Shown piece by piece: positions 349-17,613 of a stretch of DNA of 64,000 bases. The stretch is from Gammaproteobacteria bacterium. GTDB taxonomy: Bacteria; Pseudomonadota; Gammaproteobacteria; Steroidobacterales; Rariloculaceae. How positions within the stretch are numbered: position 1 is the first letter of the stretch; each line of letters begins with the position of its first letter. The notes beneath the pieces were generated by a model that had not been told where the DNA came from, made no database searches, and worked only from the letters and a program-made list of their open reading frames with translations. The stretch is taken from NCBI GenBank assembly GCA_050485685.1, contig JBJHBW010000002.1, positions 86,680 to 150,679 of the forward strand, given 5' to 3'. Position numbers and translations under genes: made by a program.

Positions 349-1524
349 ATGGCGGCACTAAAGCCCGGTTGGCGTCGTGTGAAGTTCGGCGACGTGGTGC
401 GCCTGTCCAAGGCGCGTTGTGCCGACCCGCTGGCGCAAGGCTTCGAGCGCTTCGTCGGTCTGGAGCATGTTGAGCCGGGCGACCTGCGTATCCGGAGATG
501 GGGCAACGTGGCCGACGGCACCACCTTCACCAACGTGTTCCTGCCTGGGCAGGTGCTGTTCGGCAAGCGCCGCGCCTACCAGCGCAAGGTGGCGGTGGCC
601 GATTTCGCGGGGGTCTGTTCCGGCGATATCTACGTGCTGGAAAGCAAGGATGCAGGCGTGCTGTTGCCCCATCTGCTGCCGTTAATCTGCCAAACTGAAG
701 CGTTTTTCGAGCATGCGGTCGGGACGTCAGCTGGGAGCCTGAGCCCGCGTACCAACTGGACCAATTTGGCGCGATTTGAGTTCGCGTTGCCACCACCGGA
801 GGAGCAGGAGCGAGTTTTCGGCATATTGAGTGCGACCAATGCTGTAAGTGAAAAATTTGACGAACTTCTCGCTGCTACAACAGTGCTCTTTATGTCCTCG
901 CTGGAAGCAGCGCAAGGAGAAGGCAGTTTCCCGCGTAAGCCTATTGGCGAGTTGTGCGAGCTGATTATGGATTTTAGGGGGCGCACGCCCAAGAAGCTCG
1001 GGATGGAATGGAGCGGGGGAGATATACCCGCGCTATCTGCAAACAATGTGCTTCATCGCAGAATCGACCTTCAGAGAGAAACCAATTACGGGTCGTCGGC
1101 ACTCTACGAGAGATGGATGACCCGCGGCGGGTTAGTAGAGGGGGATATTCTATTTACAACTGAAGCACCACTTGGGAATGTTGTCCGGCTTCAAGAAAGT
1201 CGGCGCTACATATTGAGTCAACGCGTGATCGCCATGCGCGCGAAATCTGAGCAGATTAGACCGGACTACTTAGAAGCTGTCCTTTGCAGCAACTTTTTCC
1301 GAAGAGAGCTTGAGCGACTAGCCACGGGAACTACGGCTAAGGGAATTCGGGTGGGGAGCTTGGTAACGATCAAAATTCCTGTCCCGCCTCTCGCGCATCA
1401 GACTGAATGGGCTTCAAGGACTTCCGAGATATCTCAGATCGAGCGCGATGTAGAAGAGCGACGCAAAGAAGCGAAATTGCTGTTGAGCAAGTTGTTGAAT
1501 GAAACGTTGAGCGGGGCTTCGTGA
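349..1524 (+). CDS. hsdS: Type I restriction-modification specificity subunit S
   Basis: 391 aa; GWRRVKFGDV start, two TRD units ending LPPPEEQERV and VPPLAHQ; TGA overlaps hsdR ATG. Confidence 0.9.
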   Translation: MAALKPGWRRVKFGDVVRLSKARCADPLAQGFERFVGLEHVEPGDLRIRRWGNVADGTTFTNVFLPGQVLFGKRRAYQRKVAVADFAGVCSGDIYVLESKDAGVLLPHLLPLICQTEAFFEHAVGTSAGSLSPRTNWTNLARFEFALPPPEEQERVFGILSATNAVSEKFDELLAATTVLFMSSLEAAQGEGSFPRKPIGELCELIMDFRGRTPKKLGMEWSGGDIPALSANNVLHRRIDLQRETNYGSSALYERWMTRGGLVEGDILFTTEAPLGNVVRLQESRRYILSQRVIAMRAKSEQIRPDYLEAVLCSNFFRRELERLATGTTAKGIRVGSLVTIKIPVPPLAHQTEWASRTSEISQIERDVEERRKEAKLLLSKLLNETLSGAS

Positions 1525-4511
1525 TGTTCACTGAGTCAAACACCGTCGAAGCCTACCTCTACGACCTGCTTTCCGGTCCGGAAAAGTCCACTCCAGACAA
1601 TGGCGTGCGGGAACCGAATCCTACTTACGGCCGCAGGCACAAGGGCCTCGGCTGGCACCGCATTTCCAGCGCCGAGATCTCCCGTCAACACCAGGACGTA
1701 CTGGTTGAATCTTGGGTGCGCGAGGCGCTGATCCGCCTCAATCCGGAGCTTGCAGCCCAGCCGGACCGCGCCGATGAGGTGCTCTACAAGCTGCGAGCGA
1801 TCGTGCTGTCGGTGCGCTTCGACGGCTTGGTGCGCGCCAATGAGGAATTCACGGCCTGGCTCAGGGGAGAGCGTTCCATGCCCTTCGGCCAAAACAACGA
1901 GCATGTGCCGGTTCGCCTGATTGACTTCGACAACCTCGATCAGAATCAGTACGTCGTCACCCAGCAGTTCACGTTTCGCGCCGGCAGCGCCGAGCGTCGC
2001 GCCGACATGATCCTCCTTATCAACGGCCTGCCGCTGGTGCTGATCGAGGCCAAGACGCCGACGCGCTCGGCGGTGAGCTGGGTGGATGGCGCGCTGCAGG
2101 TGCATGACGACTATGAGAAGCATGTGCCCGAGCTGTTCGTCTGCAATGTGTTCTCGGTGGCCACCGAAGGCAAGGAGTATCGCTACGGTTCTCTCGGCCT
2201 GCCCATCAAGGATTGGGGGCCGTGGAATCTGGAGGACGATGGTGACGCGCTCAAGCATCCACTGAAAGGCTTGAAACTGGCTGCCGAGAGCATGCTGCGG
2301 CCGCATGTGGTGCTCGACATACTGGCCAACTTCACCCTGTTCGCCACGGACAAGAGGAAGCGCCGCATTAAGATCATCTGCCGCTATCAGCAGTACGAAG
2401 CCGCCAACAAGATCGTCGAGCGGGTGCTGGCCGGTTACCCCAGGAAGGGCCTGATCTGGCATTTTCAGGGTTCCGGAAAGTCGCTCCTGATGGTGTTTGC
2501 GGCGCAGAAGCTGCGCCTGCATCCGCGCTTGAAGAACCCCACGGTGCTGATCGTGGTCGACCGTGTCGATCTCGACACCCAGATCACCGGCACCTTTACT
2601 GGGGCCGATATTCCCAACCTCGAGAAGGCCGACTCCCGCGACAAGCTACGCCAACTGCTGGCGCAGGACGTGCGCAAGATCATCATCACGACGATCTTCA
2701 AGTTCGGCGAGGCCCCGAACAGTGAAAATGGGGGCGTGCTGAACGATCGCAGCAATATCATCACCCTGGTGGACGAGGCGCATCGCACCCAGGAGGGCGA
2801 TCTCGGCCGCAAGATGCGCGATTCCCTGCCTAATGCCTTCCTGTTCGGCCTGACCGGTACGCCGATCAATCGCTTCGATCGAAACACGTTCTACGCCTTC
2901 GGGGCGGAGGAGGATGACCAAGGCTACCTGAGCCGCTACGGCTTCGAGGAGTCGATCCGCGACGGGGCGACGCTGAAGCTGCACTTCGAACCGCGCCTCC
3001 TGGAGCTGCACATCGACAAGGCCGCCATCGACGCCGCCTTCAAGGAGATGACCGGCGGCCTCTCCGACCTCGACCGCGACAACCTCGGCAAGACCGCCGC
3101 CAAGATGGCGGTGCTGGTCAAGACGCCCGAGCGCATCCGGCGCGTGTGCGAGGACATCGTCCAGCACTTCCAGAGCAAGGTGGAGCCGAACGGCTTCAAG
3201 GGCCAGATCGTCACTTTTGACCGCGAATCCTGCCTGCTCTACAAGCAGGAGCTGGACAAGCTGCTGCCGCCCGAATCCTGCGACATCGTCATGACGGTTA
3301 ACGCCAACGAGCCGCAGTACAAGGCCTACGCGCGCTCGCGGGATGAGGAAGAGCGGTTGCTTGACCGCTTCCGCGACCCAAACGACCCGCTCAAACTGAT
3401 TATCGTCACCTCGAAGCTGCTGACCGGCTTCGATGCGCCCATTTTGCAGGCGATGTACCTGGACAAGCCGCTGCGCGACCACACGCTGCTCCAGGCCATC
3501 TGCCGGGTGAACCGCACCTACTCCGATCAGAAGACCCACGGCCTGATCGTGGATTACCTCGGCATCTTCGACGACGTGGCCAAGGCGCTGGAGTTCGACG
3601 ACAAGAGCGTCACGGCGGTGGTATCGAACATCCAGGAGCTCAAGGATCGGCTGCCGGAGGCGATGCAGAAGTGCCTGGCTTTCTTTGCCGGCGTGGATCG
3701 CACGGTCGAGGGCTATGAGGGCCTGATCGCCGCTCAGCAGTGCCTCCCCAACAACGACGTGCGCGACAACTTCGCCGCCGAGTACAGCCTGCTCAACAAG
3801 CTGTGGGAGGCCATCTCGCCCGACTCGATCCTCGGCGAACACGAGAAGGACTACAAGTGGCTGTCGCAGGTGTACCAGTCGGTGCAGCCCTCCAGCGGCC
3901 ACGGCAAGCTGATCTGGCACTCCCTCGGAGCCAAGACCATCGAGCTGATCCACGAGAACGTGCACGTCGATGCCGTGCGCGACGATCTCGACACACTAGT
4001 GCTGGACGCCGATCTGCTGGAGGCGGTGCTTTCGAATCCCGACCCGAAGAAGGCGAAGGAGATCGAAATCAAGGTGGCCCGGCGGCTACGCAAGCACCTC
4101 GGCGACCCCAGGTTCAAGGCGCTCTCGGAACGCCTGGATGCGCTGCGCGACCGCTTCGAGTCCGGCGTGCTCAACAGCGTCGAGTTCCTGAAGCAACTGC
4201 TGCAACTGGCCAAGGAAGTCCTGCAGGCGGAGAAGGAAGTACCGCCGGAAGAGGACGAAGACCGTGGCAAGGCCGCGCTGACCGAGCTGTTTAATGAGGT
4301 CAAGACCGCCGAGACGCCGATCATGGTCGAGCGCGTAGTGGCGGACATCGACGAGATCGTGCGCTTGGTGCGTTTCCCGGGGTGGCAGGACACTCAGGCC
4401 GGAGAACGGGAGATCAAGAAGGCGTTGAGGAGATCTTTATTCAAGTACAAACTGCATGCAGATGAAGAGCTGTTTGAGAAGGCGTACGGGTATATCCGGC
4501 AATACTACTGA
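1524..4511 (+). CDS. hsdR: Type I restriction endonuclease subunit R
   Basis: RADMILLINGLPLVLIEAK nuclease motif, WHFQGSGKS Walker A, DEAHR, LTGTP, LLTGFDAP, QAICRVNR. Confidence 0.95.
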   Translation: MFTESNTVEAYLYDLLSGPEKSTPDNGVREPNPTYGRRHKGLGWHRISSAEISRQHQDVLVESWVREALIRLNPELAAQPDRADEVLYKLRAIVLSVRFDGLVRANEEFTAWLRGERSMPFGQNNEHVPVRLIDFDNLDQNQYVVTQQFTFRAGSAERRADMILLINGLPLVLIEAKTPTRSAVSWVDGALQVHDDYEKHVPELFVCNVFSVATEGKEYRYGSLGLPIKDWGPWNLEDDGDALKHPLKGLKLAAESMLRPHVVLDILANFTLFATDKRKRRIKIICRYQQYEAANKIVERVLAGYPRKGLIWHFQGSGKSLLMVFAAQKLRLHPRLKNPTVLIVVDRVDLDTQITGTFTGADIPNLEKADSRDKLRQLLAQDVRKIIITTIFKFGEAPNSENGGVLNDRSNIITLVDEAHRTQEGDLGRKMRDSLPNAFLFGLTGTPINRFDRNTFYAFGAEEDDQGYLSRYGFEESIRDGATLKLHFEPRLLELHIDKAAIDAAFKEMTGGLSDLDRDNLGKTAAKMAVLVKTPERIRRVCEDIVQHFQSKVEPNGFKGQIVTFDRESCLLYKQELDKLLPPESCDIVMTVNANEPQYKAYARSRDEEERLLDRFRDPNDPLKLIIVTSKLLTGFDAPILQAMYLDKPLRDHTLLQAICRVNRTYSDQKTHGLIVDYLGIFDDVAKALEFDDKSVTAVVSNIQELKDRLPEAMQKCLAFFAGVDRTVEGYEGLIAAQQCLPNNDVRDNFAAEYSLLNKLWEAISPDSILGEHEKDYKWLSQVYQSVQPSSGHGKLIWHSLGAKTIELIHENVHVDAVRDDLDTLVLDADLLEAVLSNPDPKKAKEIEIKVARRLRKHLGDPRFKALSERLDALRDRFESGVLNSVEFLKQLLQLAKEVLQAEKEVPPEEDEDRGKAALTELFNEVKTAETPIMVERVVADIDEIVRLVRFPGWQDTQAGEREIKKALRRSLFKYKLHADEELFEKAYGYIRQYY

Positions 4512-4610
4512 CTGAAACGGATTCGCAAGCCCTTATCGGTTCACGGAAACGGAATTCGGGCAAGAGTTGGACTCGCAAAAAACAGCCTGCAAACAATCGA
4601 CCACTGCCCG

Positions 4611-6845
4611 TTACGTCTCCATCTCGTTCTCGACGGCAGGCAGTTGGACATAGTCGCTGCCCATCATCATCTTGTAATGCCCGTCATGTTCAGACTGCTC
4701 AAATATTCTCTGAAAGACAGAAAGATAGCGGTTGACCTGTCCCGCATCACAGGACATGTAGAGATCATCGTTCGCGAAATGCGAGCCGTCATTGATCCAT
4801 GAGAAGAGGGAGCCACATATCACTTTATCCTGCCCATCAAACTTTTCTATGATGCTCTCCGGTGTGACACCGCCGAAAAATTTGAAGTATTGCTCCAGTA
4901 TGCGACGCATGGCGTTCTGGATAGCGGTGTCAGATGGCGGTTTCTGTTTCACTTCTCGCCACAATAGTTCATAGCTCGACCTGATGGGGTTTTCCTGCGA
5001 CGGCATGAGATCGGAACGGTCAGCGGACTTGCGGATGATCCAAAAGGTTTCGTCATGGAGCGCGTAGGCACCGTTGCGCTTCTTGTTGAAGGTGATTTCC
5101 TTGTGAAAGTAGATGTTGTGGGTCAGTACGAATACCTGCTTTATGGCGCTGCGCGCCTCGCGCATCTCATTCACGATACCTTTGATAAGATTGCAGACTA
5201 TGAACAAGATATCTGCATCAAGGCTCGATACCGGATCATCGAACACGACAATCCGGTCAGCTGTTGCACCGCTTGCCGAAAACGATCCCCCTATCAGGTG
5301 ATAGAAATACAGGAAGGTGATGAAGGATTTTTCGCCTTCACTCAATGTGTCTTTCGCATCTTCCCCGCCGGGACGCTTAACCTCATAGAATCCTTCTTCC
5401 TCGTTTTCTACAAGATGGAAATTTACAAACCCGAAAGACTTTAGAAGTTTGTTGATTGCGTCGATCGTAGGTTTGATGCTCGTAATCCTGCGCTCGTTCT
5501 CCTCGATTTCGGCGTTCTTTGTTTCCCATTCACGTGAGCGCTGTTCGATCTGCGCGTTGAGACTGACCATTGCCGCGTCCAGATCGCTCCTCGCCTGCAT
5601 ATATTTGCCGTAGAGCGATTTCGTGTCTTCGACCAAGCGTCGCCAAATTTGCGCGGATAGCTCCTTCTTGCGGGCACCGAGATTGCTAAGAGTCTCGTTA
5701 TTCACCTTCACCTTGCGATTCGCAGCCTCGATGTGCGCCTCAACCGCCGAGAAAAGTGGTTTGGTATCGCTAAGCGTGATCGTCGTACTAGGTTCCCTTT
5801 TCTTGACTCTTATGCGTTCTATGTTTCCGTTCAACGCTAGACGCAACGTGGCGAGCTCTCTGTCATAGGCATCGCGGTCTAGGAACGTGGAATCCACGAT
5901 CGAAGAAGCGCCATAACTTTCCAGCACAGTCTTCGTCAAGCTCTCATAGGTATCCAAGAGCCGGTCGATTGCAGCGAGATCAGAGACATAGGTTTCGTCG
6001 AAATAGTCTTCGAGGCTCTGACGAAACGCGGCGCCGGTCTTTTGTTGGCAAAAGGGACATTGATTGTCCAACTGGTCAAAGTACTCCCGTCCTTGCTGGA
6101 CCCAGTCGCTGCTGTCGAGTTTCTCGATGAGCGCTGCTATATCGACGTCTTCCTTGCCGATGATCTTCTTGGTCAGAATGTCGGCGGCTTCGAGTGCGAC
6201 GAAGGCCGGCCGGTTCGGCCGCGGAAGGGTTGATGCTTCGGTCAGTGTACCGTCAAATACTGTCGACGCAGCTTCGCGCAACGCACCTATACTCAGTAGT
6301 TCTGCATGATTACTCTCCGCTTCGCGTACATAGCGAGCGCAAAAGTTTCTCCTGTTATTGTTCAGGCCGGAAAAGGCGTCACTCAAATCATCAAGGTTGC
6401 TCTTGGCATTCCAGACATCCTCGACCAGCTTGCTTTCCAGATCGTCGCGTAGTTTCTGTTTTCCCCCGTTCCCATCTTCACCAGAGAGTGTCCTTTTCAA
6501 GCTGGCCAGCTTGTCGCTGATCTCATCGGTATCCGCTTTCAACGATCTGATCGTTTCGGCCACTTCGATATTTCCGCCAAAGGTATAGATACCCTTAATG
6601 GTGCTCGCCGCATCGAAATGCCGTTTGACAAAATCTCGGTTGTAGACGCGCGTTTCTAGAGGATTGCCCGCTTTCCACGTCACCGTGCACTGAGGATAGT
6701 TCTCCGTTTTATCAATTACGCGGGAAATCGTTGTCTTGCCGGAGCCGTTCGGGCCGTAGACAAAATTGAGTGCCTTAAGGCCTTTGAGGCAGGTGCCCTC
6801 AGCGTGGTAAGCCCCTTCATTGGACAGATGAATTTCTTCGATCAT
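4611..6845 (-). CDS. RloC-like (AAA_13) ABC-ATPase with zinc hook and C-terminal HEPN-type domain
   Basis: GPNGSGKTT, coiled coil with CPFCQQ hook, LSEGE signature, DDPVSSLD, LTHN, NAMRRILE and WINDGSH; lower GC than flanks. Confidence 0.8.
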   Translation of the reverse strand: MIEEIHLSNEGAYHAEGTCLKGLKALNFVYGPNGSGKTTISRVIDKTENYPQCTVTWKAGNPLETRVYNRDFVKRHFDAASTIKGIYTFGGNIEVAETIRSLKADTDEISDKLASLKRTLSGEDGNGGKQKLRDDLESKLVEDVWNAKSNLDDLSDAFSGLNNNRRNFCARYVREAESNHAELLSIGALREAASTVFDGTLTEASTLPRPNRPAFVALEAADILTKKIIGKEDVDIAALIEKLDSSDWVQQGREYFDQLDNQCPFCQQKTGAAFRQSLEDYFDETYVSDLAAIDRLLDTYESLTKTVLESYGASSIVDSTFLDRDAYDRELATLRLALNGNIERIRVKKREPSTTITLSDTKPLFSAVEAHIEAANRKVKVNNETLSNLGARKKELSAQIWRRLVEDTKSLYGKYMQARSDLDAAMVSLNAQIEQRSREWETKNAEIEENERRITSIKPTIDAINKLLKSFGFVNFHLVENEEEGFYEVKRPGGEDAKDTLSEGEKSFITFLYFYHLIGGSFSASGATADRIVVFDDPVSSLDADILFIVCNLIKGIVNEMREARSAIKQVFVLTHNIYFHKEITFNKKRNGAYALHDETFWIIRKSADRSDLMPSQENPIRSSYELLWREVKQKPPSDTAIQNAMRRILEQYFKFFGGVTPESIIEKFDGQDKVICGSLFSWINDGSHFANDDLYMSCDAGQVNRYLSVFQRIFEQSEHDGHYKMMMGSDYVQLPAVENEMET

Positions 6846-6933
6846 GTCATTTGCCCCCGCGACGTATTGTTACCGTGCCATCATTCCGCAAGACATTGCA
6901 ATAGGTGAGATATGGTTACTGGTGGATCAAGAC

Positions 6934-8415
6934 GCGGTGGAGATCCGCGAACGCCTCGCGGCGCTGATCGGCGAGGACGCCCGACGCATCACCGTGCTCA
7001 CCTGCCATGCGATGGCGATGCGCCTGACCGGACATTGCTTCACCGGCAAGCGTCTCGCGCTTGACGAGGAATCCTTCCGCGACATCATCCGCCAGGCCGC
7101 CGCGCTGGTGCGCGGTGAAGGCCTCGCGCCCGACGAAGCCGACGCGCAGCGCGAGCGCCTGCTCGAAGGCTACCGCTGGATACTCGTGGACGAGTATCAG
7201 GACATCGAGGCCGAGCAGTACGAACTGATCGCCGCGCTCGCCGGCCGCACGCGCGCCGACGAGGACGGGCGACTCAGCCTGTTCGCGGTCGGCGACGACG
7301 ATCAGAACATCTATTCGTTCGCCGGCGCGTCGGTGGCGTACATCCGCCGCTTCGAAGAGGACTACACCGCGAAACCCGCCTGGCTCACGGACAACTACCG
7401 CTCCACGCGCCACATCATCGACACCGCGAACCGCATCATCGAGCCCGCGCACAACCGGATGAAGGAACGCCATCCGATCCGGATCGACCGGCGACGCGAG
7501 GCGGATCCGCCCGGCGCTGTGCTCGCGAAGCTCGATCCGGTGGCGGCGCAGCCGGACGGGATCCACTGGGCCGTGCTGCGCGATGCGCTCGAGGACTACG
7601 CGCTCGAGACCGGCGGCACCGAACAGCCGCGCGAGCGATTCATCGAGTGGCTCGTGGAATGGTGCCGCGACGCGCGCCGCCGCCAGCGCGGCCTGCTGCT
7701 CGTGACCGCGCACAGCGCGAAGGGGCTTCAGTTCGATCACGTCGGGGTACTCGACGGCGACTGGATGCGGTATGGCAAGGGGGAGGATCCGGATGCACCG
7801 CGGCGGCTTTACTACGTGGCGATGACGCGTGCGCGGCAGTCGCTGTTGCTGGCGCGCGGGCATGGCCGTGACGGGGATCTGCGCGGCGGCAGCAGGCGAG
7901 GCAACGTGCGGCGGCATCTGCTCGATGAGCTTCAGCCGGGGCCGGCGGTGGTGTTCAGGGAGGCGGTGGAGGTCGGTGAGGTTGCGCCGGAGCTTCGGCG
8001 CGTGCGGCGGCGGTTGGGGCAGGGCTTAGTGGACCTCGGGTTTGCCGGGCGCTACGGGCAGAGCCGGCCGGTGCATGCGGATATCGCTGGTCTGGCTACG
8101 GGCGACGGGCTCACGCTGCGTGATGAAGATGGTCGGTGGGAACTGCATGATGCTGCGGGCAATCTCGTTGGTCGGCTCGCGAAGGCGTTCGCGATGCCCG
8201 CCGGGATGCGGTGTATCGAGGCGAGTGTCGCGGCCGTGATCGTGAGGTCGGGGGAGGATTCGCCGCCGGAGTATCGCGAGCAGGTTCGGTGCGCGCGATG
8301 GGAAGTGGTGATGCCGGAGCTGTTGCTGGAGCCGGTGCAGGGGGCGGTCGACTATGAGCGGCGGCGTGGGGTGTCGCGCGCGGTGCATGGGGAGCGGTGG
8401 GTGGCGGATCGGTAG
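6934..8415 (+). pseudogene. N-terminally truncated UvrD/REP (SF1) helicase, probably remnant of a RecQ-UvrD fusion
   Basis: Has LVDEYQD, VGDDDQNIYSF, NYRST, TAHSAKGLQFD and RRLYYVAMTRAR but no Walker A; the ORF start 6844 lies in AT-richer non-homologous sequence. Confidence 0.7.
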
Positions 8416-8578
8416 CTGATTAACCAGTCGGTCACGAGCTTCGAACGGCTGCTCGTTCCCGGAACCACCTTTCGCCGTATCTCGTCGATTCGATGAGTTT
8501 CCGCGGCTGCGTGAGCAGGGCTTCGCACGTTACGTTGGCTGGCAGAAGGTAGTCGCAACGGAATGCCGCCACCTGCCG

Positions 8579-9496
8579 ATGAGTCATGACCAGAACTTCA
8601 AGAACCTGATTCTGGACTATCCGCGCGAGGCGCTGGCCTTCTTCGCAGCCGAAGAAGCGGCGGACTTCGGCGAGGATGTCCGCATCACACCGCTGCGGCA
8701 GGAGCAGCTGAAGGAGCGACTGGGTGAGCGCTTCCGCGAGCTCGACGTGCCCTTGCTCGTGGAGTGGCCGGACGGCCGGCGAGAAGCGTTGCTGTTCGTG
8801 ATCGAGCACGAGTCGCAGACGCGCAGGTTCGAGATTCAACGGCTTGTGCACTACTGCGTCGATCTGGCTGTGTTGTGCAACACGGATCGCGTTGTGCCGG
8901 TGGTGATATTCCTCGATCGGGGATCCGCGCCGACGTCATGGTCCCTGGGCGGCGACCGGCACACGTTTCTGCAGTTCGAGTACCTGGCCTGCCGCCTGGC
9001 TGACATTCCGTATCGGTTGCATCGCGACAGCGAGAATCTGGTAGCGCGGGTCAACCTTCCGAACATGGCCTGGCAAGGCGTCGAGGAGAAGGTCGACGCC
9101 TACGCGCAGGCCGTTCGGGGACTACTCGCACTCGAACCAGACTTCGAACGCCGCGCCAAGTACGTGGAGTTCGTCGACATCTACGGAGGGCTTGATGATA
9201 ATGAACGCAGGCTCTTCGAGCGGCAGTATCCGCAGGAGGATGAGCAGATGGCAGGGGTGGTAGAACGCGCTCGGCAGGAGGGGCGGCAGGAAGGCCGACT
9301 GGAAGGGCGCCATGAAGGCCGTCAGGAGGGTGTGCGTGACGGTGAGGCCCTTCTGCTGCATCGTCAATTGCGCCAGCGCTTCGGCAATCTGCCCGACTGG
9401 GTATGGCCGCGTCTCCAGCAGGCCGATACGGCGCAGCTCGAGCAATGGGGTGAGCGGGTTCTGAGCGCCGACAGTCTGGCGGCGGTGTTCGGCTGA
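8579..9496 (+). CDS. Rpn-family PD-(D/E)XK nuclease with DUF4351 C-terminus, copy 1
   Basis: HDQNFKNLI start, RELD...IEHES catalytic region, (R-x-E-G)n linker, LRQRFG..LEQWGERVLSA tail. Confidence 0.85.
   Translation: MSHDQNFKNLILDYPREALAFFAAEEAADFGEDVRITPLRQEQLKERLGERFRELDVPLLVEWPDGRREALLFVIEHESQTRRFEIQRLVHYCVDLAVLCNTDRVVPVVIFLDRGSAPTSWSLGGDRHTFLQFEYLACRLADIPYRLHRDSENLVARVNLPNMAWQGVEEKVDAYAQAVRGLLALEPDFERRAKYVEFVDIYGGLDDNERRLFERQYPQEDEQMAGVVERARQEGRQEGRLEGRHEGRQEGVRDGEALLLHRQLRQRFGNLPDWVWPRLQQADTAQLEQWGERVLSADSLAAVFG
9248..9496 (+). CDS. Putative internally initiated small Rpn C-terminal protein (RpnS-like antitoxin), 82 aa
   Basis: AGGAGG at 9234-9239, in-frame ATG at 9248 just before the EGRQ repeats. 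Confidence 0.6.
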   Translation: MAGVVERARQEGRQEGRLEGRHEGRQEGVRDGEALLLHRQLRQRFGNLPDWVWPRLQQADTAQLEQWGERVLSADSLAAVFG

Positions 9497-9508
9497 GGAG
9501 TAGTCGCC

Positions 9509-9937
9509 ATGAGATGCTTTGTCTACCCCGCCCGCCTCACACGCGATCGAACCGACGGCGGCTACGTCGTCACGTTTCGCGACATCCCGGAAGCCATCAC
9601 CCAAAGCGAAACCCGAAAGCAGGGGATCGTCGAAGCTGCCGGCGCCGTACAGGCAGCGATCGAAGGACGCATCATGGACGATCTGGACATACCGCCAGCA
9701 TCCGCCCCCCGCAGAGGCGAGTGCTTGATTGCCGTGCCCATACAGACGGCTCTGAAGGCCGCCCTGTATCTGGAACTGAAGGAATCCGGCGTGAGCCGGA
9801 CGGAGCTCGCACGCCGGCTCGCGATCGACGAGAAGGAAGCACGCCGAATGCTGGATCCTCGTCACCCGAGCAAAGCTGACAGGCTCGAGCGCGCGCTCGC
9901 AGCGCTTGGCCGGCAGGCGGAGGTGCGGGTGAGTTAG
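9509..9937 (+). CDS. hicB: HicB-family antitoxin with C-terminal HTH
   Basis: YPARL..DGGYVVTFRDIPEAITQ, then SRTELARRL..KEARRMLD HTH; SD GAGGAG upstream. Confidence 0.85.
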   Translation: MRCFVYPARLTRDRTDGGYVVTFRDIPEAITQSETRKQGIVEAAGAVQAAIEGRIMDDLDIPPASAPRRGECLIAVPIQTALKAALYLELKESGVSRTELARRLAIDEKEARRMLDPRHPSKADRLERALAALGRQAEVRVS

Positions 9938-10108
9938 CGCGGCGCTTCTCGCCGCGATCGTTCGTAAGTTGGTCCCCACGGGCCTGCCCGACTGCCTGTA
10001 GCACGGTATCTTGGCGATCCGGTGAGATTCCGCGGCTGCGTGACCAGAGTCTGTTCCGTTACGTTGGCAGTCAGAAGGTAGTCGCAACGGAATGCCGCCA
10101 CCCTGCCG

Positions 10109-11035
10109 ATGAGCCATGACCAGAACTTCAAGAACCTGATTCTGGATTACCCGCGCCAGGCGCTGGCCTTCTTCGCAGCCGAGGAGGCGGCGGAACTCGG
10201 GGAGGACGTCCGCATCACACCGCTGCGGCAGGAGCAGCTGAAGGAGCGACTGGGTGATCGCTTCCGCGAGCTCGACGTGCCTTTGCTCGTGGAGTGGCCG
10301 GACGGTCGGCGTGAAGCGTTGCTGTTCGTGATCGAGCACGAGACGCAGGCGCGTCGATTCGAGATTCATCGGCTTGTGCACTACTGCGTCGATCTGGCTG
10401 CGCTGTGCGATACCGATCGCGTCGTGCCGGTGGTGATTTTTCTGGATCGTGGTTCCGCTCCTACAACGTGGTCGCTGGGTGGGGACCGGCACACGTTTCT
10501 GCAGTTCGAGTATCTCGCCTGCCGCCTGGCCGACATTCCTTATCGCCAGCATCGCGACAGTGAGAATCTCGTCGCGCGGGTCAACCTCCCAAACATGGCC
10601 TGGCAAGGCGTCGAGGAGAAGGTCGACGCCTACGCCCAGGCGGTTCGGGGACTACTTGCACTCGAGCCGAACTTCGAACGCCGCGCCAAGTACGTGGAGT
10701 TCGTCGACATCTACGGAGGGCTTGATGATAATGAACGCAGGCTCTTCGAGCAGCGGTATCCGCAGGAGGACGAGCAGATGGTGGGTTACTTTGAGCGCGC
10801 TCGGCAGGAAGGCCGTCAGGAAGGGCGCCATGAAGGCCGTCAGGAGGGGGTGCGTGAAGGTGAGGCTCTTCTGCTCCATCGCCTGTTGCGCCGCCGCTTC
10901 GGCGAACTGCCCGACTGGGTCTGGCCGCGTCTCCAGCAGGCCAACACCGCGCAGCTGGAGCAATGGGGTGAACGGGTTCTCAGCGCTGACAGTCTGGCGG
11001 CGGTGTTCGGTGAGGAGGCCTCACCGGGAGATTAG
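10109..11035 (+). CDS. Rpn-family PD-(D/E)XK nuclease with DUF4351 C-terminus, copy 2
   Basis: Nearly identical protein to 8579..9496. Confidence 0.85.
   Translation: MSHDQNFKNLILDYPRQALAFFAAEEAAELGEDVRITPLRQEQLKERLGDRFRELDVPLLVEWPDGRREALLFVIEHETQARRFEIHRLVHYCVDLAALCDTDRVVPVVIFLDRGSAPTTWSLGGDRHTFLQFEYLACRLADIPYRQHRDSENLVARVNLPNMAWQGVEEKVDAYAQAVRGLLALEPNFERRAKYVEFVDIYGGLDDNERRLFEQRYPQEDEQMVGYFERARQEGRQEGRHEGRQEGVREGEALLLHRLLRRRFGELPDWVWPRLQQANTAQLEQWGERVLSADSLAAVFGEEASPGD
10778..11035 (+). CDS. Putative internally initiated RpnS-like antitoxin, 85 aa
   Basis: AGGAGG at 10764-10769, in-frame ATG at 10778, same codon offset (223) as copy 1. Confidence 0.6.
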   Translation: MVGYFERARQEGRQEGRHEGRQEGVREGEALLLHRLLRRRFGELPDWVWPRLQQANTAQLEQWGERVLSADSLAAVFGEEASPGD

Positions 11036-11094
11036 TGCAGCCTTACCGGGCCTTCCGCCAGCCCGTTGCTGGCTCCGCGAAACCGCTAATCGGC

Positions 11095-12327
11095 TTACTG
11101 TTGCTCGGCCAGTTTCTCAAGACGCGGCCGAAACACATTAATGAAGCGGTTTACCCTGTCTCCGAGATCTTGATAGAGCTCTTCCTTGTTGTCTTCGATA
11201 AGGGAGCCCGAATACCGATCCGCAGCAATGATGGTGTGCTTCAATCCATCGCTGTCCCAGCGTACCGGGATTCCCAGTTCCCGATTTATCTCCTCCTCGT
11301 CGTCCCGAAGGGCGGCATACATCCGGTCACCAACTGGGCCTTTGTAGAAGGTGAGATAGACGCCAGCCCTGTTTGTGGACGGCGCCACATAGGCACTGAC
11401 CCAGGCATCTGTTTCCTTGGGCATCGTGAAGTATTGATTCTGAGAACGGGCCGGCTTCCACACTGACTGCCTCTTGTCATCCAGTTCCAGGCGCGCCAGA
11501 AACTCCGACCAGAACTGCTCGAACTTCGCTCGCGTGGCAAGCACTTCAGGACTGACTCCCTGTTCTTGCTCTAAAAAGTCCTCGGTATCATCTTCGCTGG
11601 CTGTAATCGCGTCGTTACGAATGTCCACGACTATTCGCTTCAGGATCGTCGACTGGGCAAGCACACGAGGTTGAACCAGCTGTGTACCGTCTTTCATCCG
11701 AAAGATGGCCATCTCCACAAGCCCGAATGTGAAGTGAAGTGATGCGTGGCCATCGAGGAAATCGGTGATAGCACCAACACCCTCACGGATTCCATCCCCG
11801 ACAATCAATAGCAGAAAATCACCACGACGAAGACTCTGCGTAACGGAGTCGAAGAACCGGGCTTCTTCGACGGAATCAGGCTCGTATCCGACGACCTGGG
11901 CGAGCCCCGTGGCTTTACCACAATCCTCAGCTCGGCGCGCTCTACGGACGGCAGCATCCAGGGTCTCGTAGTTCCAGCGGGAGAGTTCCTTGGCATAGTC
12001 CAGGATCTGTCCAATGACTTTCCGCCTGGCCTCCGGGTTACGCCACAGTTTCGCTTCGACGATCACGAGCCGGCCGCCAGGCGTGACATAGAGAACATCC
12101 AAGGGGCCAGCAGTAGTCTCCATCTCCCGGCATACCGGCACCATTCCGGAGAACGCATCATCGATCTCCGAGACTGGCAACGCATCCGGGTGGGAGTACA
12201 GCAAGTTCTGCAGCCAATCCTCGGTATACGCGTCAATCGACTCGGCGCCTGTAAGCGCTATTCTCTCCAGCTTCCAGGAGGTACCGTCCTTGCCAACGAT
12301 CAGAGGCGATGAAAATGCTGATGCCAT
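11095..12327 (-). CDS. NucS/EndoMS-like PD-(D/E)XK nuclease fused to DUF4268-like domain
   Basis: EDWLQ..CREM..GPLDVL..VIVEAKL..RKVIGQILDY; C-terminal FWSEFL/QYFTM/EEINRELG; SD AAGGAG before ATG 12327. Confidence 0.7.
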   Translation of the reverse strand: MASAFSSPLIVGKDGTSWKLERIALTGAESIDAYTEDWLQNLLYSHPDALPVSEIDDAFSGMVPVCREMETTAGPLDVLYVTPGGRLVIVEAKLWRNPEARRKVIGQILDYAKELSRWNYETLDAAVRRARRAEDCGKATGLAQVVGYEPDSVEEARFFDSVTQSLRRGDFLLLIVGDGIREGVGAITDFLDGHASLHFTFGLVEMAIFRMKDGTQLVQPRVLAQSTILKRIVVDIRNDAITASEDDTEDFLEQEQGVSPEVLATRAKFEQFWSEFLARLELDDKRQSVWKPARSQNQYFTMPKETDAWVSAYVAPSTNRAGVYLTFYKGPVGDRMYAALRDDEEEINRELGIPVRWDSDGLKHTIIAADRYSGSLIEDNKEELYQDLGDRVNRFINVFRPRLEKLAEQQ

Positions 12328-12343
12328 CACGAGGCTCCTTGTC

Positions 12344-13177
12344 TCACTTTGCGACGATACCTTTGCAGCTTGGATAGTCGCTACACCCCCAGAATTGCTT
12401 GCCTGCGTTGCGTCCGCGCCTTGCCGTTCTTGACACCATAGCCAAGCCACAATCTGGGCAGTCGGGAGTGCTCGAAAGTGTCTGTCCTGGCTCGTGCGAC
12501 GTTTGCCGCTCGACAGCCGGCTCGGGCTTGTCGAGCTTAGCCGCAAGTTTGCCGAGCGCTGCGCCGTCAATCAGCTCAACGCCTGCCTGCATCGCGAAGC
12601 GTTTCGCATCCAGCGTAAACGTCCCCGACGTTACGACAACGCCACCCTGCACGCCTTCCGCGCTCATCACCCCCACAAGCTCCCGAACGACTTTGACGCC
12701 GACCTGCCGTGCGTTCCAGTGTTTGCATTGAATGAGCAACCGCTCATCGTCTCGTGCAGCCACCAGATCTACGCCGCCATCGGCACCAGACGGCGTAGGA
12801 TGTACCGCATACCCTCTGCGGCGGAACACCTCCTCGACCATCAGCTCGAAGTCCCGCCAATGCATGCGGCCGGATTCGCCGGGGCGCGCATACTCAGTCA
12901 CGAGCCGACCGGCTTTACGGCGACGGAAGATAGAGAAGGCCGCGCCAATCACAAAGATAACGGGCAGAGCGATCTTGCCAATCTGCGCGAAGGTGTATAT
13001 CAGCTGCGGACCTATTGACCCGATGTCTGCGAGCTCGGCGGGCGCAGTCCTCTCCGGCACCGCAATCAGTCCCAATCCGACATAGGACGCGCCTGCAAGC
13101 ACAAGGTTTACCCACCAGGGCAATACCGTGGCGATCCTTAAGAGGTCTTCTACCGGTTTTTCGCGGCGGCGAGGCAT
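12344..13177 (-). CDS. Mrr-family restriction endonuclease with N-terminal TM helices and C-terminal topoisomerase-type Zn ribbon
   Basis: WRDFE, ADGGVDL, IQCKHW, VVVTSGTFT; CPDC...FWGCSDYPSC. Confidence 0.85.
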   Translation of the reverse strand: MPRRREKPVEDLLRIATVLPWWVNLVLAGASYVGLGLIAVPERTAPAELADIGSIGPQLIYTFAQIGKIALPVIFVIGAAFSIFRRRKAGRLVTEYARPGESGRMHWRDFELMVEEVFRRRGYAVHPTPSGADGGVDLVAARDDERLLIQCKHWNARQVGVKVVRELVGVMSAEGVQGGVVVTSGTFTLDAKRFAMQAGVELIDGAALGKLAAKLDKPEPAVERQTSHEPGQTLSSTPDCPDCGLAMVSRTARRGRNAGKQFWGCSDYPSCKGIVAK

Positions 13178-13299
13178 AGTTCCCGGTCACTCCCCGTTTA
13201 CGACTGCTTTGAAGTCTATGCAAAGTAATTTCCTGATGACGGAAGCAAGTCACAGGTTCGTCCCTGGTACGACTCGAGAACAGCCGCACGCCCGCGGAC

Positions 13300-13701
13300 G
13301 TGCTTCGCATCGTCAGTACGCTCGCTGAGTGGCTGAAAGCGCCGGAACAGGCGAGCCTGCGGCGCGCGTTCGTCGTCTGGATCAACAGGGTTATACTGGC
13401 CCGCAAGCCCGGTGGCCCTGTCATGGGCATAGAGGAGCTGGAAGAGATGAGCACCTTGCTGGAAGTGCGGATGCGAGAGTGGGATGAAGCATCCAGGGAG
13501 AAGGGTCGGGCGGAAGGACTCCAGGAAGGGCTGCGAGATGGCGAGGCCTTCCTGCTGCACCGTCAATTGCGCCGGCGCTTCGGCGAACTGCCCGACTGGG
13601 TGTGGCCGCGTCTGCAGCAGGCCAACACGGCGCAGCTGGAGCAATGGGGTGAACGGGTTCTGAGCGCCGACCGTCTGGCGGCGGTGATTGGCGAGGAGTA
13701 G
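13300..13701 (+). pseudogene. Rpn/DUF4351 C-terminal fragment; may still express an 84-aa RpnS from ATG 13447
   Basis: No nuclease domain; tail GEAFLLHRQLRRRFGELPDWVWPRLQQ..ERVLSAD is almost identical to copies 1 and 2; GAGGAG at 13432-13437 before in-frame ATG 13447. Confidence 0.7.
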
Positions 13702-13807
13702 CCGCCGCACCATGCCCGTTTCGGGCACGCGTCCCGCCGACTTCCGCTGCACAACTGCCAGTGCACGGATACAACGGATATACTCAAGACCTGCCTGGGA
13801 GAAAAGC

Positions 13808-14299
13808 GTGAACAAGATCCTCTGTGCCCTTGTCGGGGCCGTCATAATCGCCGCCCCCGCCTTTGCGGAACCCGAATACGTCACGATCGAGATGGAGATC
13901 GAGATCGCGAAATCGGCCGAGGAGGTCTGGGCCGCGGTCGGCGGCTATTGCGACATCGGCGAATGGGCCAATATCGACTGCGAGATCACGTCCGGAAACG
14001 GCGGCATGGGCACCGTGCGCGCACTCGCAGGCGGCCGCATCATCGAGGTCCTGGTCGCGCAGACCGAACTCTCCTACGGCTATGCGCAACCTGCGGTTGA
14101 AGGGCAGTTTTACGACCTCTATCACGGCTTCATGGAAGCGAAGCCGATCAGCGCCGACACGTCGAAAATCGTATACACGCTTGTCTATGACATCTCTGAC
14201 AGACCGGACCAGGCGGCGAAGGACGCCGACATTGAACGCCGCCGCACCATGTTCGAAAATGCGCTTTCGAACATGAAGCGCATCGCCGAGGCGAATTAG
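13808..14299 (+). CDS. Exported SRPBCC/START-fold protein
   Basis: Signal peptide (APAFA), EIAKSAEEVWAAVGGYCDI..G.GTVR, C-terminal helix ALSNMKRIAE; GGAG SD. Confidence 0.7.
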   Translation: MNKILCALVGAVIIAAPAFAEPEYVTIEMEIEIAKSAEEVWAAVGGYCDIGEWANIDCEITSGNGGMGTVRALAGGRIIEVLVAQTELSYGYAQPAVEGQFYDLYHGFMEAKPISADTSKIVYTLVYDISDRPDQAAKDADIERRRTMFENALSNMKRIAEAN

Positions 14300-14835: not shown

Positions 14836-17532
14836 CTACCGGCTGACCTGCACACTGGTTCCACCACCACCACCGAAGCCGCCGCCGAAGCCGCCGCCAC
14901 CAGCGCCGGTCGAGACGACCTTGACCCACAGTGCATCATCGCCCCTGAAGTACGAGGTGTCGGTGGCCGCGCGCAGCGCATCAAGACTGCTCAGCTCCGT
15001 ACCGGAAGCCGCGGTTGTGAATCCCGGCAGCTCGAAGATCACCCAGGAGCCGCTGTCCAGCTGACTCAGAGTGATGGACAGCTCCTCCCTTTCGGTGCTC
15101 ACCTTGACCTCTGTGCCGGCCATCACCGAGGTCTGCCCTGTCGCGGTGAACTCAACGCCATTGCGGCTGAGAACGACCGGCGGTTGAGCAGGCGCTCCAC
15201 CGGCGCCACCTCCGGGCTGACCGCCGCCAAAGCCGCCGCCAGCACCGGGGCCTCCCGGTCCACCGCCACCGAAGCCGGCGCCACCGGGGCCGCCGGGCCC
15301 TCCGGGACCGCCCGGGCCACCGCCTCCGAAGCCCCCGCCACCCGGGCCGCCGCCGGGACCGCCGGGGCCAAAGCCGCCACCGCCGAATCCGCCACCGCCA
15401 GGGCCGCCAAAGCTCATGCGCCCGAGGTCGCCCGCGCACACGACGGCGTTCCAGGTGGGCTGGAGCTCGCAGCCTTCGACAGCGCTCAGGATGCCGATAT
15501 TGTTCACGACGTAGGCATTGGGCTGACCGGTGAGTGAGCCGTCGATGTCCTTGATCGCCGCAGTCCTCCAGCCGGCACTGCTGGCATTGTCGTTACCCCA
15601 CTCACGCACCATCTCCGGGAAATGCACCGGCTTGGCGTTGACGAAGCTCACCCGTTCCACCGCGTTGTCGGAGCTGGTCGGGAAGCTGGTGAACAGCAGA
15701 TAGGAAAGCGCTCCGGCGTCGCGAGTGTCGTTGTCCACGTAATTGACGAACGTCGTGTCCTCGACGAAGTGCAGGAAATCGTAGTACTCGTAGCCGCGGA
15801 TCGGGAAATCCGGAATTTCGGGGTAAGGCAGGCTGCGGCCGTAGGCAATCTCCTCCGGTGTCCTCGGGTTACCGATGTTCGCGGTCTCGCCGACGAACAG
15901 CGAATCCACGACCTTGGAGGTGAAGTCGCCGCCACCGGGCTCGATGCCGGGAAAGGCATGCGTATAGCCTATGGCGTTGTCGGCCAGCCTCAGGTTCCTG
16001 AATACGTGCAACTCACCGCGGGCCCAGATGCCACCATTGTTGTTCTTGTACGCAGTGAAATCTTCAATGAAGGATTCCTGCGGACCTTCCCTGTTGGCCG
16101 GATCGGCATAGGCCATATGCGGGTTGCCGCCGACATTGAATCGGCCCTCCGGATTGGGACCGCGATCGAGCATCAGACCATCGAAGTTCGAGTGGGCGAC
16201 GTTGCCGCTGAACTCGCGGATCTGCATGCGACGCGGCCAGGTATTCCGGCTGATCTCGGTACCTTCGAACTCACCGATGGGGTGCTGCGGAAATGCCATC
16301 CAGAAGCCGATCTGGTCGGAACCTGCGGCCACGTTGTCCCGGTAGACGTTGTCCGGGTTGGTGATCCAGAAGGTCGACACCGTGTTGTCAGAAGGAATCA
16401 GGACATCCTCGGAGAGCTGGCCATTGCCTCGCTCCTGGGACGAGCCGGCTGCGGCGAGGTTGGTCGGCACGCACGGCAGGGTCATATGACACTTGGTCTG
16501 GATACCCAGGTTCCTGACGAACTCGTTGCTGTGCTCGATGCCGTCTTCGAGGAAATAGCAGTGACCGACGTTGTCGTAGGCCACGTTGTTTTCAACCTGC
16601 AGGTAGTTGGTGCCATGCACCGTCACGCAGCGGTTGTAGGTGCGGTGGACGGATGAGTTTCTGATGTACTGGCCGTGCGCGTCGCCGACCAGATGCCAGT
16701 GAATCGGATAGCGGGCCAGTGTCAGGTTCTGACCCATGCGAGTGAACTCGACGCCGTCGATATACATCTGGCTCGTCGGCATGGCCATGATATGCCCGCC
16801 GAAGTATGTCTCTTCCGCGTCAGCCGATGCCTGGATCCTGATATTGCGCGTCAGCAGACCGACTTCGCCACGCTGATCCACGCCGTAGGTGATCTCGCCG
16901 TAATGCATGTATTCAAGCGGTTCATCCAGCGTGATCGTGTTGCCGTTGATGGCGGCAATGGTGCGCTGCTCGGCCTGTCTGGGATCGAAATCCGTCGACG
17001 CGAGGACGATCTGATCGCCCACCCGCCACTCAGCGGCATTCAGGACTTCGATGGAGCGGCTGCCTGCTTCGGCTGTCCTGGCCAGCTTCGTCCACGAATT
17101 GGACCGGTCGCCGTGCAGATTCAGGGTGCCGCCGGAGATCATGATCCCGCGGTCACCCATGCCGGCCATGATGTCTTCACCCGGGACTTCGTCGGTAAAG
17201 GTGATCGTCGCGTTGCGCGTATGGGGATTGGCTTCGGTGCCGATGGTCAGATCCCCGTGCAGGACGATCCACTCGGTGATCAGTTCCAGGTCCACATCGT
17301 TCGAGAACGTGAGACTGCCGTCGATAGTCAGACTGCGCAGACCCGGTGGACTGACGTCGAGAACAACGTCCATACCTTCGCTGATGACGACGGCGTCCCA
17401 TGCGCCGGGCACCTGACCACCCGGCCAGGTGGCAGGATCGGACCAGTTCTGCTGGGCCCGCACTTCGGCGACTCCAGCGAGAGCAAGCGCTGGCAACGCC
17501 AACACGAGAAACAAACGAGATCTTGCAGACAT
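14836..17532 (-). CDS. Secreted G8-domain / parallel beta-helix protein (CEMIP/TMEM2-like)
   Basis: Signal peptide, WSDPATWPGGQVP G8 start, EVGLLTRNI, RYPIHWH, NRCVTVHGT, GHCYFLEDG; Gly-rich inserts. Confidence 0.8.
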   Translation of the reverse strand: MSARSRLFLVLALPALALAGVAEVRAQQNWSDPATWPGGQVPGAWDAVVISEGMDVVLDVSPPGLRSLTIDGSLTFSNDVDLELITEWIVLHGDLTIGTEANPHTRNATITFTDEVPGEDIMAGMGDRGIMISGGTLNLHGDRSNSWTKLARTAEAGSRSIEVLNAAEWRVGDQIVLASTDFDPRQAEQRTIAAINGNTITLDEPLEYMHYGEITYGVDQRGEVGLLTRNIRIQASADAEETYFGGHIMAMPTSQMYIDGVEFTRMGQNLTLARYPIHWHLVGDAHGQYIRNSSVHRTYNRCVTVHGTNYLQVENNVAYDNVGHCYFLEDGIEHSNEFVRNLGIQTKCHMTLPCVPTNLAAAGSSQERGNGQLSEDVLIPSDNTVSTFWITNPDNVYRDNVAAGSDQIGFWMAFPQHPIGEFEGTEISRNTWPRRMQIREFSGNVAHSNFDGLMLDRGPNPEGRFNVGGNPHMAYADPANREGPQESFIEDFTAYKNNNGGIWARGELHVFRNLRLADNAIGYTHAFPGIEPGGGDFTSKVVDSLFVGETANIGNPRTPEEIAYGRSLPYPEIPDFPIRGYEYYDFLHFVEDTTFVNYVDNDTRDAGALSYLLFTSFPTSSDNAVERVSFVNAKPVHFPEMVREWGNDNASSAGWRTAAIKDIDGSLTGQPNAYVVNNIGILSAVEGCELQPTWNAVVCAGDLGRMSFGGPGGGGFGGGGFGPGGPGGGPGGGGFGGGGPGGPGGPGGPGGAGFGGGGPGGPGAGGGFGGGQPGGGAGGAPAQPPVVLSRNGVEFTATGQTSVMAGTEVKVSTEREELSITLSQLDSGSWVIFELPGFTTAASGTELSSLDALRAATDTSYFRGDDALWVKVVSTGAGGGGFGGGFGGGGGTSVQVSR

Positions 17533-17613
17533 GGCTCGGTAACCCCCTGGCAGAGCAAACGCTCTTTTATTATTGGGGGCAGAATAGATCACTTCCCGAG
17601 TACCAGCAATCAA

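Follow-up and report, generated by a model that had tools for sequence, protein, structure and literature searches.

A probable Rpn-type toxin/antitoxin array with two gene-in-gene copies and a classical rpn remnant in a gammaproteobacterial defence island

We analysed a stretch of 64,000 nucleotides (nt) of contig JBJHBW010000002.1 (assembly GCA_050485685.1, positions 86,680 to 150,679), called the window below, from a gammaproteobacterium of the Rariloculaceae. Two full-length genes, copy 1 and copy 2, join an N-terminal domain resembling the Rpn nucleases to a helical DUF4351 tail, and a third locus nearby keeps the tail end of another rpn gene. An earlier note, made from the letters alone, had proposed that each full gene contains a start for a small antitoxin and that the third locus is an antitoxin-only copy. 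We use L for the long form of each gene, S for the small protein that an internal start would yield from its tail, and orphan S for the small open reading frame (ORF) of the third locus. The features of the array are as follows.

8475-8578, plus strand: leader of copy 1, alignable with the copy-2 leader at 10005-10108
8579-9496, plus strand: copy 1, long form L1, ORF of 305 amino acids (aa) with an Rpn-like N-terminal domain, a long helix and a DUF4351 tail
9174-9202, plus strand: internal sigma-70-like promoter of copy 1 (TCGACA, 17 nt, GATAAT)
9234-9239, plus strand: Shine-Dalgarno (SD) sequence of copy 1, AGGAGG, read from the sequence
9248-9496, plus strand: S1, predicted small protein of 82 aa from an internal ATG in frame with L1
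9278-9337, plus strand: EGRQ-type repeats of copy 1, five four-residue units in helix 1, read from the translation
10109-11035, plus strand: copy 2, long form L2, ORF of 308 aa
10704-10732, plus strand: internal sigma-70-like promoter of copy 2 (TCGACA, 17 nt, GATAAT)
10764-10769, plus strand: SD sequence of copy 2, AGGAGG, read from the sequence
10778-11035, plus strand: S2, predicted small protein of 85 aa from the internal ATG at 10778, in frame with L2
10808-10855, plus strand: repeats of copy 2, four units, one 12-nt unit fewer than in copy 1
13264-13701, plus strand: rpn remnant including orphan S, a truncated classical rpn gene
13264-13446, plus strand: remnant of the middle part of the classical rpn gene, with the nuclease core (about 175 residues) gone
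13432-13437, plus strand: SD sequence of the orphan, GAGGAG, 9 nt before its ATG and retained in the related locus L060
13447-13701, plus strand: orphan S, 84 aa, stop codon at 13699-13701, DUF4351 match, helix 1 of the classical lineage

L1 and L2 share 93% identity as proteins and 92% as DNA including the leader of about 100 nt, and their DNA homology starts about 100 nt 5' of each ATG. The two copies are a direct duplication in tandem and enclose a HicB-like gene. Their N-terminal 223 codons differ by 42 synonymous and 14 non-synonymous codon changes, so both copies have been kept by purifying selection. A difference of 1 nt at 9494 brings the stop codon of copy 1 earlier than that of copy 2, and one metagenome contig is without that base. 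The tails of both copies and of the orphan exceed the cut-off of Pfam DUF4351 (PF14261; E 4.5e-7 for copy 1, 1.1e-8 for copy 2 and 4e-8 for the orphan) and are the only DUF4351 matches in the 3.2-Mb assembly. The family of copies 1 and 2 is large, with 1,903 proteins at E<=0.001 among 8,000 scored candidates in a first search. Its hosts are Gamma- and Betaproteobacteria, Desulfobacterota and others, including Halomonas, Pseudomonas, Thauera, Thioalkalivibrio and Chromatiaceae, and the databases label its members "DUF4351 domain-containing protein" or hypothetical. For comparison we used 83 family genes, 81 from 76 of 79 related genome loci (given L numbers here) and the two window copies. The gene filter left out loci L029 and L053 and the broken gene of L060, and L075 and L078 overlap on one contig.

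In both full genes 8 nt lie between AGGAGG and an in-frame ATG, which is codon 224; the earlier note had given this spacing and one shared codon, and the N-termini that it listed (MAGVVE, MVGYFE and, for the orphan, MSTLLE) agree with our translations. It had also placed these starts right before an EGRQ linker; EGRQ-type repeats do begin 10 residues past the Met in both copies, at residue 11 of S. Exactly these two AGGAGG-N8-ATG sites occur on both strands of the 64-kb window, where 0.35 were expected and 2 of 100 shuffles reached two, a count that says little because the two sites are paralogous and represent one event. The family carries the weight of the argument. An in-frame internal start is found in all 83 genes (79 ATG, 4 GTG). 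The Met224 column itself holds ATG in 70 and GTG in 4, and the 9 exceptions have ATG one codon later, each with an SD-like string of its own. An SD core of 4 nt lies at -16 to -5 in 80 of the 83 genes, and one of 5 nt in 64. Start and SD coincide at this sole alignment column in 73 genes, the next-best column reaching 22. The SD is encoded by varying residues (Q, E, D or R at position 219), with a constant GGAG/GAGG core.

The start of the long form is different. Its alignment column has an SD core in merely 7 of 73 family genes, and in the window the leader at 8475-8578 offers neither an SD ahead of the L start nor, in the promoter scan, a sigma-70-like site. S would therefore be expected in excess over L. 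The leader shared by copies 1 and 2 is not kept across the family. Just 5' of the long-form start in the homologs of L010, L038 and L074 there is a CTGT-N8-ACAG sequence, which we take to be the gammaproteobacterial LexA-box pattern, and SOS control of the long form may operate in those genomes. Upstream of the two window copies this sequence was not seen.

Each full gene also contains a sigma-70-like promoter ahead of the internal start. Both sites match at 10 of 12 positions and account for two of the four hits of the promoter scan in 5.7 kb, where 1.1 were expected. Their hexamers are encoded by (V/I)-D-I and D-N. The -35 hexamer TCGACA is present in 63 of the 83 family genes and a -10 of the form GAnAAT in 56, with both hexamers qualifying in 57, and the distance from the end of the -10 to the start is exactly 45 nt in 74. 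One related locus, L011, carries at 3937-4641 two tandem stand-alone S ORFs (93 and 89 aa) downstream of the parent family gene, each with a -10 element, an SD and an ATG, and with differing repeat numbers. The duplication spans the -10 element through S, its junction falling within the -35 region. Because L011 has thus duplicated the promoter-like site, the SD and the S ORF as free-standing genes, the promoter-SD-S module behaves as an autonomous unit.

The four-residue repeats form part of a long helix. In the model of copy 1 the tail consists of this helix (residues 218-268) followed by helices at 275-281, 284-294 and 300-304, an arrangement in keeping with the three helices described for RpnS in the literature. 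The PDB sequence search gave no meaningful match for S1 (best E 0.22) or for the classical profile A4 (1.2). With VIA-align, generic helical matches dominated for the whole model, and the best rows for the tail were designed or unrelated helical bundles. From the initiator Met to the GEA motif we count 32 residues in copy 1, 28 in copy 2 and 32 in the orphan. This length is a multiple of four between 12 and 48 in 70 of the 83 family genes, and homologs 86-93% identical to copy 1 have lengths of 20, 24, 28 and 32. According to the available part of the study of Zhong et al. (PNAS 2023, PMC10400941), the repeats, four residues each, set in 8-20 residues past the Met within a long first helix, a repeat number off by one abolishes neutralisation, and an RpnS blocks only the RpnL of equal repeat number. 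By analogy, copies 1 and 2, one repeat apart, should form orthogonal, mutually insulated pairs, and the orphan would be length-matched to copy 1 only.

The conservation of start, SD, promoter and length step across the family supports the two gene-in-gene units of the earlier note, and we infer that S1 and S2 are translated from their internal starts. The 83 genes are mutually related, however, and their counts are not those of 83 independent events.

The kinship of the N-terminal domain with the Rpn nucleases is distant. A comparison of full-length profiles with hhalign joined the family to classical PF04754+DUF4351 proteins at a probability of 99.6% (E 8e-24, 295 columns), collinear from the HDxxFK motif through the tail. 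D56, E76 and E78 are invariant among 27 N-terminal domains. The AlphaFold (AF2) model, with a mean predicted local distance difference test (pLDDT) score of 88.0 for the whole copy-1 protein and 85.6 for the N-terminal domain alone, has an alpha/beta core in which D56 begins the strand 57-62 and E76-x-E78 ends the strand 68-76. When the domain model was compared with 48,161 PDB representatives by VIA-align, 8 of the 11 chains at Z>=5 were PD-(D/E)XK nucleases. The top match was NucS (2vld_B; Z 6.5, root-mean-square deviation 3.3, 106 residues aligned), and VC1899 (6.0), EcoT38I (5.8), Can2 (5.6 and 5.1), PaqCI (5.3), R.BspD6I (5.2) and Cdn1 (5.1) were the others. An Atlas feature search, used as a lead only, returned a top cluster with a score of 0.97, 13% of whose members carry PF04754.

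Several results weigh against calling this domain Rpn. PF04754 scores 15.4 and 15.5 bits on copies 1 and 2 (E 0.015 for copy 1) against a cut-off of 21, and TIGR01784 of NCBIfam 19.6 bits against 52.1. At E<=0.1, PF04754 is matched by just 4 of 30 family members (the best at 0.0019), and no PADLOC model matches copy 1. The N-terminal domains alone align weakly in hhalign (E 5e-4, probability 31%, 121 columns), with HDxxFK, D and ExE/ExQ in register. The best fold score of 6.5 is short of 8, the confidence bar of the aligner, and with Foldseek neither the whole nor the N-domain model gave a hit at E<=0.001. The third acidic position is E, whereas classical Rpn has Q. On balance the domain is likely an Rpn-like nuclease by distant homology, its membership not being demonstrated, and catalysis by the D...ExE motif is assumed. 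The term "Rpn genes" used earlier would hold in this distant sense and does not extend to membership of the curated PF04754 or TIGR01784 families, whose cut-offs the scores do not reach.

The third locus has another origin. As had been reported for it, the nuclease is absent while GAGGAG, the ATG at 13447 and an intact 84-aa tail are present. Its frame is open upstream to 13240, and the upstream part is rpn coding sequence. Residues 7-150 of the 153-aa frame align to about 175-320 of relatives of 312-335 aa, of which all ten tested carry PF04754 (E 1e-19 to 1e-32) and nine DUF4351. An intact ortholog of 341 aa lies at 812-1837 of L060, a locus of a gammaproteobacterial metagenome-assembled genome, and is 89% identical to the remnant 5' of the ATG. 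We also compared Logan contigs of three metagenomic DNA runs, which are broken up at repeats. Contigs of two runs that match the remnant diverge from the window before 13264, and their diverging sequence would encode the residues that precede that point in the intact gene. The third locus is thus the 3' 45% or so (about 146 codons) of a classical PF04754-type rpn gene, cut at about 13264 beside the Mrr gene. The description "stand-alone antitoxin-only copy" is right in that a separate S ORF with its own start signals exists; it does not hold as a purpose-built gene, since this ORF is embedded in a 5'-truncated classical rpn remnant. L060 also holds an Mrr homolog (50% identical), a second truncated rpn remnant beside it, and a broken family gene at 3298-4001, in which an N-terminal deletion or a frame change follows MSHDQNFKNLI and the tail and internal start are intact. 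A second in-frame ATG of the orphan stands at 13423, 8 codons upstream of 13447 and before GAGGAG, and is GTG in the L060 ortholog. We consider 13447 the likelier start because 13423 lacks a clear SD.

The tail of the orphan is chimeric. Over the 90 nt that lead up to GEA, identity is 83% with the L060 ortholog and 43-48% with the two full copies, whereas the 150-nt DUF4351 core shares 88-89% of its DNA with copies 1 and 2 and 81% with the ortholog. The core of the classical gene in L060 is likewise closer to the family gene of its own locus (85%) than to the window remnant (81%). These identities point to an exchange of tails within the locus, and the orphan core has probably been swapped with that of the local copies or homogenised to them. 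As a general rule, tail homogenisation was rejected, the picture being mixed: extra tails resemble the family gene beside them more than any other locus in L011 (91% versus 78%) and L020 (94% versus 88%), and they do not in L010, L064, L077 and three of the four tails of L043.

The third locus may be inert pseudogene debris, neither transcribed nor functional, so that only the full genes matter, and we give this nearly an even chance. It is after all a 5'-truncated gene, and L060 too has broken rpn pieces, so decay is common in such arrays. Some of our results count against a working orphan. No sigma-70-like promoter passed the scan 5' of 13447. The ratio of non-synonymous to synonymous differences (pN/pS) relative to the intact ortholog is 0.16 upstream of the ATG and 0.19 in S; being equally low on both sides, it does not indicate selection on S alone and would be expected if the truncation were recent and selection had yet to act. 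No PF04754 match in the host assembly (96% complete) exceeds the cut-off, so the orphan would be without an L of its own lineage to regulate. Against inertness, the S frame is intact with its SD and ATG kept, and its DUF4351 core is more similar to the live local genes than to the ortholog. A possible -10 element, TATACT (containing the Ile codon ATA) with a poor -35, lies 49 nt 5' of the ATG at 13447 and is kept in three of three close relatives, too few to weigh. Stand-alone S genes also recur in this family, in L011, and in E. coli a gene of this kind, ypaA, is expressed according to the part of Zhong et al. (PMC10400941) available to us.

A complex model also counts against inertness. The model of orphan S with the copy-1 tail has an ipSAE of 0.78, the best of three controls reaching 0.00. 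The mark used for such models is reached by 116 of 157 solved complexes, and among 215 mismatched pairs 2 reach it. At least 98% of contacts recur between runs, the pLDDT of the partners is at least 87, and the predicted interface runs in register along helix 1 (residues 232-267). The score may, however, reflect merely the near-identical DUF4351 cores, and close cousins of true partners also pass this test, so the result indicates likeness and is not proof that the orphan binds. That the orphan is expressed and acts on copy 1 is a tentative proposal, plausible yet somewhat on the doubtful side.

The tail of copy 2 (about 10880-11010) and that of the remnant (about 13550-13690) are direct repeats of each other, with 88% identity across the 150-nt core. 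Between them lies a minus-strand cassette of a PDC-S11-like gene and an Mrr gene, and the Mrr homolog of L060 likewise lies between rpn tails. A broader picture would be that unrelated rpn lineages of one genome swap DUF4351 cores, that the S module of a dead rpn gene has been retargeted to another nuclease family as a length-matched trans antitoxin or buffer for copy 1, and that tail repeats are the handles by which defence genes are shuffled in and out of rpn arrays. We regard this combination as unlikely at present and mention it as speculation.

For the two full genes, one could suppose that the Met, the acidic residues and LDDNE are kept for the long protein only, and that no small protein exists, the promoter and the SD being by-products of coding. 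The SD does consist of Glu and Gln codons in a Glu-rich linker, SD-like strings are frequent in the repeat region (at other columns of the tail, in as many as 38 of 83 genes), and the family members are related to one another. A by-product would nevertheless be hard to reconcile with the details. The sole alternative to Met is Val written as GTG (4 of 83), the 9 genes with a displaced Met all have the ATG one codon on with an SD of their own, and the residues on either side of the Met, like those behind the SD, are free to vary. An equally conserved Met, Met163, has an SD in 0 of 83 genes. Within the -10 hexamer the Asn codon is AAT in 57 genes and AAC in 3, whereas gene-wide 210 of 701 Asn codons (30%) are AAT, a bias for which protein function hardly offers an explanation. 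L011, moreover, duplicated exactly this module as free-standing ORFs. We consider the by-product explanation very unlikely and keep to internal starts that are probably used.

A similarly low probability attaches to a pairing of copy 1, as toxin, with the downstream HicB-like gene as antitoxin, instead of or besides the internal S. This gene starts 13 nt past the copy-1 stop codon, which overlaps a GAGGAG, and no HicA lies on its contig (the HicA matches of the assembly are all on C21 and C20). HicB-like proteins are helix-turn-helix (HTH) antitoxins, both matches here being under cut-off. HicAB membership itself is not supported, with HicB-like_2 at E 1.8e-5 (25.3 bits against a cut-off of 30), no adjacent HicA and no matching PADLOC model. 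The 79 related loci contain no homolog of the gene, and copy 2, 93% identical, has no such neighbour, while the S module of copy 1 is complete. The HicB-like gene looks like a local passenger, and internal S remains the preferred partner.

Least credible is the reading, in line with older annotation of YhgA-like proteins, that the genes are transposases of a mobile element and that the array arose by transposition: weak matches to 'putative transposase' and 'ISNCY family transposase' models, a varying copy number and patchy neighbourhoods would fit, but the tandem direct duplication includes the leader of about 100 nt, and the available part of Zhong et al. (PMC10400941) argues against transposition of Rpn genes, which lack inverted terminal repeats and target-site duplications and have variable ends (no terminal-repeat scan of the window was made).

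The genes around and between the rpn genes are the following.

349-4511, upstream of the array: Type I restriction-modification (R-M) S and R subunits
4611-6845, minus strand, upstream of the array: PDC-S06/AAA_13 gene
6844-8415, upstream of the array: UvrD/GajB-like fragment
9509-9937, plus strand: HicB-like and HTH gene, 142 aa, between copies 1 and 2
11095-12324, minus strand: PDC-S11-like nuclease gene with a DUF4268 C-terminus (PADLOC PDC-S11, E 7e-12)
12344-13177, minus strand: Mrr-type restriction endonuclease with a Zn ribbon (Mrr_cat, E 1.8e-32), divergent from the remnant

With Type I R-M, PDC-S06, GajB-like, PDC-S11-like and Mrr genes around it, the Rpn-type array sits within a defence island. 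The matches of the gene at 11095-12324 to DUF4268 (E 0.0012) and NucS (E 0.0013) are both under cut-off. The stretch of the PDC-S06/AAA_13 gene (window 4400-6800) has about 50% G+C, against 62-70% on either side. In the UvrD/GajB-like ORF at 6844-8415 only the later part of the helicase profile is matched, and the gene may be truncated. An Rfam search at E<=0.1 across 8000-14200 gave no RNA family match. Beyond the array, the minus strand of 14836-17613 encodes a 925-aa ORF with long Gly-rich low-complexity runs of the GGGFGGGG type and a signal-peptide-like start.

Taking these lines together, we are fairly confident that the locus is an array of Rpn-type toxin/antitoxin genes, with two gene-in-gene copies and a classical-rpn remnant, in a defence island. 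Copies 1 and 2 would be tandem paralogs of a large, mostly unannotated family. Their L protein would combine a restriction-endonuclease-like domain bearing D...ExE, the repeat helix and a DUF4351 helical bundle. A short transcript would start at the sigma-70-like promoter inside each gene, and the strong SD and the ATG at codon 224 would yield S, 82 or 85 aa long and with the same sequence as the L tail. With no SD at the L start, S would be made in excess. It may then pair with the L tail through helix 1 and keep the nuclease off until infection releases it, and the difference of one repeat would make the copy-1 and copy-2 pairs orthogonal. At the third locus a classical rpn gene has lost its 5' part of about 175 codons beside the Mrr-type gene and kept the SD, the ATG and the S frame. 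The orphan, if transcribed, could supply free S with a helix-1 length equal to that of copy 1. Toxicity, neutralisation and an anti-phage role of L and S are proposed here by analogy with studied systems.

The earlier interpretation is right in outline, yet the system that it describes is already published. A full-text literature search on DUF4351 or recombination-promoting nucleases with antitoxin and phage yielded only Zhong et al. and a commentary by Koonin as relevant. The gain here is one of scope and annotation rather than of mechanism. Two points are new. One is the gene-within-gene design, with strong comparative signatures, in a large family whose members are not labelled Rpn by the models of Pfam, NCBIfam and PADLOC that we tried. 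The other is an orphan that descends by truncation from a second rpn lineage and has a tail matched to the local genes. The signature of promoter, SD and start, with its synonymous-codon footprint, could help to annotate small proteins that are now hidden. An exchange of antitoxin modules between nuclease families is hinted at by the chimeric orphan and by the likeness of tails within loci; if true, it bears on the evolution of specificity.

At the level of sequence, each feature of the published systems recurs in the window. As far as the available part of Zhong et al. (PMC10400941) goes, RpnL/RpnS pairs comprise RpnA-E of E. coli, the plasmid-borne RpnP2 and examples in C. difficile, all rpn genes of E. 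coli have an internal promoter and an internal translation start, and RpnS binds and blocks the toxic RpnL nuclease. Arrays of rpn genes arise there by tandem duplication and are enriched in defence islands, and separate RpnS genes such as ypaA exist, annotated DUF4351 in some species. Compared with what that part of the study describes, the window genes agree in having a putative PD-(D/E)XK-type N-terminal domain with a helical, variable C-terminal domain. They also agree in the internal promoter, SD and start for a small protein identical to the tail (here as motifs only), in four-residue repeats (here from residue 11) whose number varies between close relatives, and in a tandem-duplication array within a defence island. 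They depart from it in an N-terminal domain below the Pfam and NCBIfam YhgA/Rpn cut-offs and in a D...ExE motif, the classical relatives in our alignment showing ExQ (LLEFQS) instead. Their S is 82-85 aa, compared with the 5.4 kDa of RpnA-S.

The full-length relatives of the third locus are proteins of 312-335 aa with PF04754 (Transposase_31, YhgA-like) and PF14261, of which the window keeps the last 146 or so codons. In being an S part alone at the same locus as full genes, the orphan resembles YpaA/RpnE-Ss and RpnC-Ss, which in the published account lie downstream of rpnE and rpnC. The downstream S copies of E. coli, as described there, and those of L011 derive from their own upstream gene. 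The orphan of the window does not derive from the neighbouring full rpn gene, its upstream remnant being 89% identical in protein to the L060 gene, and it comes from the other, classical lineage.

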